Origin: Parcubacteria group bacterium
Lineage (GTDB): Bacteria; Patescibacteriota; Minisyncoccia; Moranbacterales; UBA2206
Direction: 5' to 3'
DNA: 64,000 nucleotides
NCBI GenBank assembly: GCA_041661275.1
Contig: JBAZUU010000001.1
Location: 229,057-293,056 of the forward strand
In this document: positions 27,187-27,378 of the stretch, piece by piece
How positions within the stretch are numbered: position 1 is the stretch's first letter
How the letters are laid out: each line of letters opens with the position of its first letter
Made by a program: the position numbers and the translations under genes
Notes under the pieces: model-generated
Seen by the model: the letters and a program-made list of their open reading frames with translations, nothing else
Told to the model about the DNA's origin: nothing
Database searches by the model: none

Positions 27187-27228
27187 CGATTTTGTTAGTC
27201 AATTTGCTCAGCTTGTCCCCCACCACTT

Positions 27229-27302
27229 GGGTATTTAGCTCAGCTGGTTAGAGCGCACGGTTCACATCCGTGAGGTCACTGGTTCGAGTCCAGTAATACC
27301 CA
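27229..27302 (+). tRNA. tRNA-Val(CAC), flanked by a 15 bp inverted repeat
   Basis: GGGTATT-TA-GCTCAGCTGGTTAGAGC-G-CACGG-TTCACAT-CCGTG...AATACCC-A. Flanks CCCCCACCACTTGGG (27217-27231) and CCCAAGTGGTGGGGG (27303-27317). Confidence 0.85.
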
Positions 27303-27323
27303 CCCAAGTGGTGGGGGATAAAG

Positions 27324-27378
27324 TTAGAGCGCTCCGTTCACATCGGAGAGGTCTCTGGTTCGAGTCCAGATACACCCA
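27324..27378 (+). ncRNA. tRNA-Val(CAC)-like 3' fragment (D-stem 3' strand through acceptor 3' strand) lacking a recognisable 5' half
   Basis: TTAGAGCG-CTCCG-TTCACAT-CGGAG-AGGTC-TCTGG-TTCGAGT-CCAGA-TACACCC-A. Relative to the upstream tRNA-Val it shows compensatory changes in the anticodon and T stems. Confidence 0.5.

Follow-up and report, generated by a model that had tools for sequence, protein, structure and literature searches.

The window analysed here is a stretch of 64,000 nucleotides (nt) of the 299.6-kb metagenomic contig ENA ERZ27249449 k141_323660, whose host is a Parcubacteria group bacterium (Patescibacteria, or Candidate Phyla Radiation). Between tRNA-Ala(GGC) and idi, the gene for a type 1 isopentenyl-diphosphate isomerase, the window was found to carry an intact tRNA-Val(CAC) gene enclosed by an inverted repeat and followed by the 3' part of a second tRNA-Val(CAC). 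The latter is most probably the dead 3' remnant of the original tRNA-Val(CAC) of the locus, which would have been broken in its D-loop when the intact second copy with its palindromic flanks landed there, a case of ordinary gene turnover. The parts of the arrangement are as follows.

27188-27205, plus strand: native spacer between tRNA-Ala and tRNA-Val, CGATTTTGTTAGTCAATT(T), homologous by MAFFT alignment to CGATTATTTCTTCAATT of locus L087 in a relative.
27206-27216, plus strand: GCTCAGCTTGT, which appears to be what the disrupted resident tRNA-Val(CAC) has kept of its D arm on the 5' side, namely the D-stem 5' strand and the first part of the D-loop (about nt 10-20).
27213-27232, plus strand: left arm of the inverted repeat, with its exact core at 27217-27231 (CCCCCACCACTTGGG), overlapping tRNA nt 1-4.
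27229-27302, plus strand: intact tRNA-Val(CAC), copy 1 or 'type 1', detected with ARAGORN and Rfam.
27302-27321, plus strand: right arm of the inverted repeat, with its exact core at 27303-27317 (CCCAAGTGGTGGGGG), starting with a duplicated ACCC.
27323-27378, plus strand: 3' 56 nt of a 'type 2' tRNA-Val(CAC), from the end of the D-loop and the D-stem 3' strand to the discriminator, the probable pseudogene remnant.
27379-27394, plus strand: trailer of the fragment and leader of idi, CTATAAAATTTATAAA, found unchanged in L084 and almost unchanged in L087.

Copy 1 was called Val(cac) by ARAGORN, which placed it at 27228-27306, and Rfam RF00005 scored 27229-27302 at 71 bits, the alignment covering model positions 1-71. 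It has the make-up of a canonical bacterial elongator tRNA, with stems of 7, 4, 5 and 5 bp built from standard pairs throughout and with U8, A14, G18G19, the T-loop TTCGANT, a 7-nt anticodon loop containing U33 and the discriminator all present. Its signature is GGGTATT / CACGG / ACTGG / AATACCC with discriminator A, and CCA is not encoded. The nearest allele in a relative is that of L094 (68/74). Copy 1 is presumably a functional replacement, that is, the working tRNA-Val(CAC).

The fragment starts at GTTAGAGC, 5 nt (ATAAA) past the 15-nt 3' arm, and comprises 56 nt; a preliminary description of this DNA had recognized the tRNA 3' portion but had counted 55 nt lying 6 nt further on. It is identical to copy 1 at 48 of 56 positions, and the three compensated pair swaps which had been described are present at 28-42 (A-T to T-A), 30-40 (G-C to C-G) and 49-65 (A-T to T-A). 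Two of these belong to the anticodon stem, the third to the T stem, and both stems stay fully paired. A search with RF00005 had been proposed for the whole genome; run on the window, it returned copy 1 and, for 27314-27378, a score of 34.9 bits (gathering score 29), with no orphan 5' half. ARAGORN made no call for the fragment, and in its best Rfam alignment, for which GGGGAUA is taken from the right arm, two of the acceptor pairs are non-standard and the D arm is collapsed. The fragment thus differs from a canonical tRNA in having neither an acceptor 5' strand nor a complete D arm, and because the acceptor 5' strand is missing it cannot form a tRNA. Folded by itself, 27303-27382 does no better than shuffled sequences (z = -1.8, 13/200). 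As had been noted, no matching 5' half lies nearby: GGGTGTATAGCTCAG (GGGTGTA...GCTC) was not found in the 64-kb window, and a 19-nt pattern of the 5' half with up to 3 mismatches matched only tRNA-Val(GAC) and copy 1 there. Candidate orphan 5' halves located with GGGTGTAT at up to 1 mismatch were rejected, being matches at chance frequency only, and no further tRNA fragments were detected in the window at E values up to 5.

Syntenic loci were fetched through homologues of the flanking NMO protein, a downstream 183-aa protein and idi. Seven distinct loci have readable DNA across the site (L084, L085/86, L087, L088, L089-91, L093 and L094-96), and exactly one intact tRNA-Val(CAC) occupies the position of the fragment in all seven. 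The fragment shares its position and flanks with these genes, since the relatives' tRNA-Val adjoins idi or, in L087, a decayed idi. Wherever idi is present its ATG follows the tRNA-Val 3' end by 10-16 nt, and the trailer CTATAAAATTTATAAAATGG is common to the window and L084, the closest relative with DNA, and near-identical in L087. The intact gene of L093 (GGGTGTATAGCTCAGTTGGTTAGAGCGCTCCGTTCACATCGGAGAGGTCTCTGGTTCGAGTCCAGATATACCCA, GGGTGTATAGCTCAGTTGGTTAGAGCGCTCCG...ATATACCCA) matches the fragment over its last 56 nt at 55 positions, while its 5' part is the predicted GGGTGTA...GCTC half, GGGTGTATAGCTCAG…. A search for the same synteny through idi in species-representative genomes gave matches of at most 65% identity, scattered across bacteria and archaea, none of which had a tRNA-Val beside idi.

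Within the clade the alleles form a mosaic of acceptor, anticodon-stem and T-stem variants, all of them fully paired. The stem types of the fragment occur intact in L093 (CTCCG/CGGAG with TCTGG/CCAGA) and, for the T stem, also in L087. Those of copy 1 are found intact in L085, L088, L089 and L094, where the T stem ACTGG/CCAGT is accompanied by anticodon stems CACGA or CGCCG, the former being close to the CACGG of copy 1. As the variants of both copies are seen intact in relatives, the compensated swaps represent ordinary inter-allelic divergence which is older than the break, and they tell nothing of selection on the fragment. The preliminary description had argued from them to structural selection and to a split or trans-assembled tRNA half, an argument which finds no support in view of the L093 allele, whose type the fragment has inherited swaps and all. 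It had also held that an intact tRNA-Val at this place in a relative would make the fragment a deletion pseudogene, which is essentially what the syntenic loci contain. Its fallback, the insertion of a repeat-flanked tRNA-Val into a resident tRNA-Val, is supported and can be refined to a break in the D-loop with survival of GCTCAGCTTGT.

This short upstream piece matches the D-arm sequence GCTCAGCTGGT at 10 of 11 positions, whereas nt 1-9 are absent. It directly precedes the left arm, and according to the predicted RNA fold its partner is GAGC of the fragment, in what would be the old D stem. An 8-mer match to the D arm within the 41-nt spacer would occur by chance at roughly 6e-4 according to our own estimate. 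From its sequence, GCTCAGCTTGT looks like the surviving D-arm 5' strand of the old gene. The simplest description is that the resident type 2 gene has been interrupted in its D-loop by ~106 nt (arm, tRNA 1, arm and ATAAA) and has lost its first ~9 nt, a loss which comprises the acceptor 5' strand and nt 8-9. A decayed acceptor strand was considered for AGTCAAT (27197-27203) but rejected, since the native spacer of L087 aligns with this heptamer and only 1 of its 7 positions pairs with TACACCC. A 30-nt inverted copy including the D-stem strand of the fragment was likewise discarded as the source of the upstream piece, the identity dropping from 19/20 in the 20-nt core to about 8/13 outside it. 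The complementarity beyond the core is better explained as the old D stem itself.

The inverted repeat around copy 1 was confirmed, with CCCCCACCACTTGGG at 27217-27231 having its exact reverse complement at 27303-27317, 1 nt from where the 3' arm had been placed. For this 15-mer with up to 3 mismatches, 0.6 occurrences per 64 kb are expected by chance. The repeat lengthens to 20 nt at 95% identity (27213-27232 and 27302-27321), and its lone mismatch is a G·U pair in plus-strand RNA. It had been said to flank the tRNA exactly, which is not the case: the 5' arm takes in tRNA nt 1-3 (nt 1-4 in the 20-nt version), and the right arm opens with a second ACCC (27302-05) immediately 3' of the acceptor ACCC (27298-01). 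An extension of the acceptor stem by 12-15 bp had also been proposed, and a 12-bp leader/trailer helix is indeed predicted under the acceptor stem of the cloverleaf, though with a 4-nt 3' bulge in between. Folding of the precursor, which had been suggested as a check, predicted a strong hairpin with a minimum free energy (MFE) of -83.9 kcal/mol for 27190-27385 (z = -7.7), and of -58.6 kcal/mol for 27213-27321 (z = -6.7). In the longer fold the pieces of the old D stem pair (GCUC/GAGC) and the helix runs on, through two one-base (A) bulges on one strand, into the 20-bp repeat helix, giving a predicted precursor helix of ~28 bp in all with tRNA 1 at its tip.

The arms appear to be private to this tRNA. 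No leader/trailer complementarity of more than 7 nt was detected at the other 13 of the 14 ARAGORN tRNAs in the window, and repeat flanks as a genome-wide processing feature were rejected on that ground. The arm sequence was not found elsewhere in the window, nor, chance 16-mers aside, in the other 111 fetched loci. In viral sequences a 16-mer of the arm had 12 matches in unrelated, mostly coding-looking contexts, which is about the number expected by chance, and an origin of the arm as a phage or plasmid piece was rejected, since BLAST against phages and plasmids aligned the tRNA body only. No second copy of the copy 1 body was found in metagenome and viral collections. The multiple copies which mark an element similar to a miniature inverted-repeat transposable element were therefore not seen, the arms being single in the window and the tRNA 1 body having turned up nowhere else in those collections. 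The left (…TTGT) and right (GTTAGAGC) junctions have at most 'GT' in common, which is too short to judge a target-site duplication. Two readings of the arm motifs CCCACCA / TGGTGGG, an integron attC-like site and a primer-binding-site-like sequence, were weighed from the sequence and dropped: the core-site consensus did not fit, and C/G runs can explain the 7-mer.

Together these features suggest a rearrangement which would have set the intact type 1 tRNA-Val(CAC), with ~32 nt of palindromic flank, into the D-loop of the type 2 gene. Nt 1-9 of the latter would have been lost, leaving GCTCAGCTTGT (27206-27216) and the 3' 56 nt (27323-27378). The type 1 allele probably came from a related lineage by recombination, in which the D-arm block TAGCTCAGYTGGTTAGAGCGC may have acted as micro-homology or anchor; at 20-22 nt this block is the longest stretch identical among the alleles and thus a natural place for recombination joints between diverged copies. 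The D-arm or its vicinity would then contain one of the joints, a pattern like that of homology-facilitated illegitimate recombination. The inverted repeat, a unique feature, may have arrived with the donor DNA, or else the acceptor-stem palindrome may have seeded a short-range template switch that created it. The 16 nt in front of tRNA 1 and its first 4 nt reappear as their reverse complement in the right arm, and the duplicated ACCC at the inner end of this arm fits a slipped template switch. In the transcript, RNase P and 3' trimming could mature tRNA 1 only after the ~28-bp helix had been opened by an endonuclease, RNase III-type or other. An RNase III-type opening of the paired leader and trailer, as in rRNA stems, is a reasonable guess.

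The locus also bears signs of change in other lineages. The state of idi varies among the relatives, where it is present, absent (L085/86 and a JGI contig of P0004) or decayed (L087), and the locus is therefore in flux. In L087 (metagenome-assembled genome GCA_035297485.1) the decayed idi lies at 451-613, between tRNA-Val(CAC) and tRNA-Ala(CGC), with its start and end recognisable and its middle deleted. Behind tRNA-Ala(GGC) in L088 (2339-2415) there is an orphan GGGTGTATAGCTCAGTT, corresponding to type 2 nt 1-17, followed by ~60 nt of unrelated sequence with small GC hairpins and then by an intact GGACGAT-type tRNA-Val, identical to that of L089, directly before idi. L088 thus holds the complementary relic, which points to repeated turnover at the locus. 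Judging by the two sequences, the window and L088 have independent D-loop breakpoints within 2-3 nt of one another, each with a relic of the same old allele beside a different intact allele.

A structured element of 120-160 nt is shared by L084 (5124-5282) and L089 (2293-2415; also L090 and L091), between tRNA-Ala(GGC) and tRNA-Val(CAC). It contains an inverted repeat (ACTTCGACTCG/CGAGTCGAAGT), a second hairpin (CCCTG...CGAAGGG) that has an additional insert of 38 nt in L084, and the D-arm-like strings TGCTCAGTGT and CCTGAGCTTGT. The L084 element folds at -76.8 kcal/mol (z = -4.7), and in L089 the tRNA-Ala is reduced to a 3' scrap (...ATGTCCA).

Several other explanations of the fragment were weighed. 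It is very improbable that the fragment works as half of a split or trans-assembled tRNA, or as a free-standing tRNA-like RNA under structural selection. Both of its stems are perfectly paired, its T-loop is canonical and its Rfam score exceeds the gathering score, while the GC-rich 27303-27317 precedes it and has its reverse complement upstream, which gives a superficial likeness to a Nanoarchaeum half. Against this, the relatives have an intact and unsplit gene at the exact site which is 55/56 identical, no 5' half lies within the 64-kb window, and the complement of 27303-27317 follows only the 11-nt D-arm stub and no acceptor strand. The predicted helix has two single-A bulges and not a bulge-helix-bulge, i.e., no 3-nt bulges 4 bp apart, and a bulge-helix-bulge or archaeal-intron reading of the D-loop interruption was rejected because the motif is not in this helix. 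The host is bacterial, whereas split tRNAs and the splicing endonuclease are archaeal (PMC3218864). We give as little credit to an assembly artefact, in which two strain variants would have been joined into a chimera or a fold-back would have arisen in the single MEGAHIT contig. It could be argued from the fact that one assembly covers the region and that the Logan contigs, from the same strain in two runs and from two relatives, end in tRNA-Ala(GGC). The junctions nevertheless lie outside shared k-mers, ATAAA and the repeat arms occur in neither allele, the site is deep within a 300-kb contig, and the shared identity block of ~20 nt is well under the final k of 141. Fold-back artefacts, moreover, are long inverted duplications at contig ends and not 20-nt arms.

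The remnant might also be dead as a tRNA and yet be kept as a processing signal, with RNase P/Z cutting at the old tRNA 3' end to give a short idi leader lacking a Shine-Dalgarno (SD) sequence; once tRNA 1 had been freed, GGGGAUA (27314-20) or GUGGUGGG (27308-15) would close a mini-tRNA without a D-arm. We consider this unlikely. It is in keeping with the position of idi 10-16 nt after the tRNA-Val 3' end in every idi-bearing relative, with the lack of a promoter match or SD of its own for idi in the window, with the end-to-end Rfam alignment of 27314-27378 (5/7 acceptor pairs), with an MFE structure of 27303-27382 in which an 8-bp stem closes the two arms, and with the undecayed state of the remnant. 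That structure, however, does not exceed shuffled sequences, as given above; the two closing stems are mutually exclusive and each sets a G-run on a C-run, and in the full precursor the same G's are locked in the 20-bp repeat helix. The arrangement is known from a single genome, and recency accounts for the lack of decay equally well. The arrangement was also considered as the scar of an integrative element that targets tRNA genes, which are classic sites of integration. Such an element brings a replacement for the tRNA 3' part and displaces that of the host as a direct repeat; of its interior, deletion would have left only the 20-nt linker CCCAAGTGGTGGGGGATAAA here. This too is improbable. 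In a MAFFT alignment the relatives' 5' 18 nt align to tRNA 1, so that their gene equals nt 1-18 of tRNA 1 plus the fragment and an extra unit or 'insert' of 76 nt, made of the type 1 3' part and the linker, is left over; the direct repeat is 57 nt long (86%) with a spacing of 76 nt. This view leaves the D-arm stub and the left repeat arm unaccounted for, and it needs a chimeric tRNA 1, against which the self-matched acceptor stem argues: GGGTATT of copy 1 pairs with its own 3' strand at 7/7 positions and with the displaced TACACCC strand at 5/7, so tRNA 1 is wholly foreign and non-chimeric. A Pfam scan of six neighbouring open reading frames (ORFs) at 23.5-31 kb and of idi revealed no integrase or recombinase family; the neighbours were Fic, Wzy_C, NMO, idi, a weak Ser_hydrolase-like ORF and DUF4325, and the space between the tRNA copies is 20 nt. 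Neither allele was found in viral contigs. The breakpoint in the D-loop is also out of place, as to our knowledge crossovers at tRNA att sites occur in the anticodon loop, the T-loop or at the 3' end and not in the D-loop. A bolder variant would see in the repeat-bracketed tRNA-Val(CAC) a self-contained replacement cassette, a tiny mobile or recombinogenic unit which homes to the D-loop of its own isoacceptor gene, destroying and substituting it, with RNase III opening the precursor, the remnant setting the 5' end of idi, and L088 as a second footprint; to this we attach only a slim chance.

Some observations weigh against the explanation we favour, the breakage of a resident tRNA-Val(CAC) by an incoming allele. 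No donor of type 1 and no second copy of the arms was found: a degenerate type 1/L094 pattern, run once against metagenomes, matched just an L094-type contig, and viral, phage and plasmid searches gave chance or tRNA-body matches only. The recombination and template-switch steps are therefore ones which we infer. Under this explanation nt 1-9 must have been lost separately while nt 10-20 survived. The remnant is undecayed (55/56 to L093, stems intact), which fits a recent event and is also compatible with selection. No close relative has the same arrangement, which is known from one genome and rests on one MEGAHIT contig, and the search for the 5' half covered 64 kb of a 300-kb contig in a larger genome. 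The same-strain Logan contigs from two other runs end inside tRNA-Ala(GGC). All four Logan contigs which reach the locus (L082, L083, L111 and L112; two of the identical strain and two of relatives) end in this tRNA near its anticodon arm, and the downstream region is therefore systematically unassembled in the Logan data.

Events of this kind, which leave a tRNA pseudogene remnant by allele replacement, are known, while this instance is new. Like the tRNA remnants or partial duplicates found beside an intact tRNA (attL/attR type), the fragment is a same-strand isoacceptor 3' part following an intact tRNA, its stems are kept from recent function, and the locus is variable among relatives. It differs from them in that neither an element nor an integrase separates or adjoins the copies, in the D-loop breakpoint, and in that the intact copy is wholly foreign, nested in the old gene and surrounded by a 20-nt inverted repeat. 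RNase III stems flank 16S and 23S rRNA in their precursors; here also a helix of at least 20 bp forms from the flanks of a stable RNA in a polycistronic precursor, which makes this a plausible release route for tRNA 1, but the feature concerns one tRNA in one genome with no sign of an evolved processing device. Homology-facilitated illegitimate recombination combines a joint within conserved sequence with a second, illegitimate one (PMC3240628), and in the 'sequential displacement' arrays of type VI secretion system immunity genes in Vibrio cholerae displaced remnants lie beside the incoming gene (PMC5361080). In the same way an incoming allele leaves a piece of the resident next door here, a 3' piece in the window and a 5' piece in L088, although the mechanism is inferred and donorless and the unit is a 74-nt tRNA gene and not a protein gene.

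Split, permuted and multiply-interrupted tRNAs have been described in archaea such as Nanoarchaeum equitans and Caldivirga (PMC3218864, PMC3491384). They resemble the present case in the GC-rich sequence before the 3' portion with its reverse complement elsewhere, and archaeal introns in the D-loop region are known. The host here is bacterial, no bulge-helix-bulge and no acceptor 5' strand is within reach, the orthologues are uninterrupted and near-identical, and the 'intron' would itself be a complete isoacceptor tRNA. Quasipalindrome and short-range template-switch mutations can perfect or extend inverted repeats (PMC7202029, PMC5941160, PMC7954356). In agreement with this the repeat is contiguous with the acceptor-stem palindrome and has a 4-nt ACCC ACCC slip and one mismatch at its outer end, but there is no ancestral state to compare and a copy of 16-20 nt is at the long end for such events.

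The tRNA-Val genes belong to a locus with the following further features.

27021-27048: terminator of the NMO-family gene, directly upstream of the promoter.
27058-27086, plus strand: sigma-70-like promoter, TTGACC-17-TATGAT, TG-extended, which appears to serve the tRNA/idi operon.
27114-27187, plus strand: tRNA-Ala(GGC), the first gene of the cluster, detected with ARAGORN and Rfam and syntenic in L084, L085, L087, L088, L093 and L094.
27395-27910, plus strand: idi, type 1 isopentenyl-diphosphate isomerase, NUDIX fold.
27901-27974, plus strand: tRNA-Ala(CGC), detected with ARAGORN and Rfam, which shares 10 nt with the 3' end of idi.

The locus appears to be a mixed operon of tRNA and protein genes, consisting of promoter, tRNA-Ala(GGC), tRNA-Val(CAC), idi, tRNA-Ala(CGC), a 183-aa ORF (orf183) and tRNA-Arg(CCT), the last two lying downstream of tRNA-Ala(CGC) in this order. 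The TTGAC...TATGAT/TAAGAT block upstream of tRNA-Ala(GGC) is conserved in L082, L083, L084, L085, L087 and L088. Between the promoter at 27058-27086 and idi no further promoter or terminator match was detected, and the stretch from tRNA-Ala(GGC) to idi therefore looks like one tRNA-punctuated transcript, in which idi, from the sequence, is apparently co-transcribed with the upstream tRNAs. Like all its homologues, the idi product is 171 aa long. The stop codon of idi falls within the same-strand tRNA-Ala(CGC), an overlap of 10-15 nt which is kept in four lineages (window 27901-27910, L084 5879-5888, L088 3007-3016, L089 3011-3025), and an RNase P cut at the tRNA 5' end would therefore take the stop off the idi mRNA. 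This overlap, the SD-less gap of 10-16 nt after tRNA-Val and the squeezing of orf183 between tRNA-Ala and tRNA-Arg give the locus the look of a tRNA-punctuated mixed operon.

Elsewhere in the window, a tRNA-Phe(GAA) at 42847-43153 on the plus strand (GCCAGGTTAGCTCAGCGGTAGAGCGAAGGACTGAA ... AATCCTTGCGTGCCCAGTTCGACTCTGGGACCTGGCA as exons), for which ARAGORN made no call, has its anticodon loop interrupted by a group I intron of ~230 nt (Rfam RF00028, 87.4 bits, 42869-43104). A 25-nt motif, GAGGAGGATTTGAAGnnTACTGTTT, occurs twice on the plus strand (40570-40594 and 42818-42842) with all specified bases matched and a chance expectation of 0.01; tRNA-Leu(CAG) follows directly on one copy and the tRNA-Phe with the intron on the other. 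A 14-bp palindrome, GTTCCACGTGGAAC, is present in four copies (one with a mismatch) at 24610-25344, all inside a single O-antigen-ligase-like gene of the Wzy_C type (24228-25802, minus strand), where none would be expected by chance. The copies encode MFHVEH / CSTWNI / VPRGT peptides in several frames and, from their sequence, may be small palindromic insertions within the coding region.

For the reading of tRNA fragments in general these results are a caution, as stem-preserving differences do not show selection on a fragment when the fragment is a recently truncated allele, and synteny with relatives is a quick way to settle such cases. The intact gene, a natural example of a presumably functional tRNA gene within a predicted precursor helix of ~28 bp, could be used to probe the maturation of tRNAs with paired leader and trailer. 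For the Patescibacteria, the comparison of lineages shows that a single tRNA gene of a tRNA-punctuated idi locus has turned over repeatedly, with breakpoints that cluster in the D-arm.

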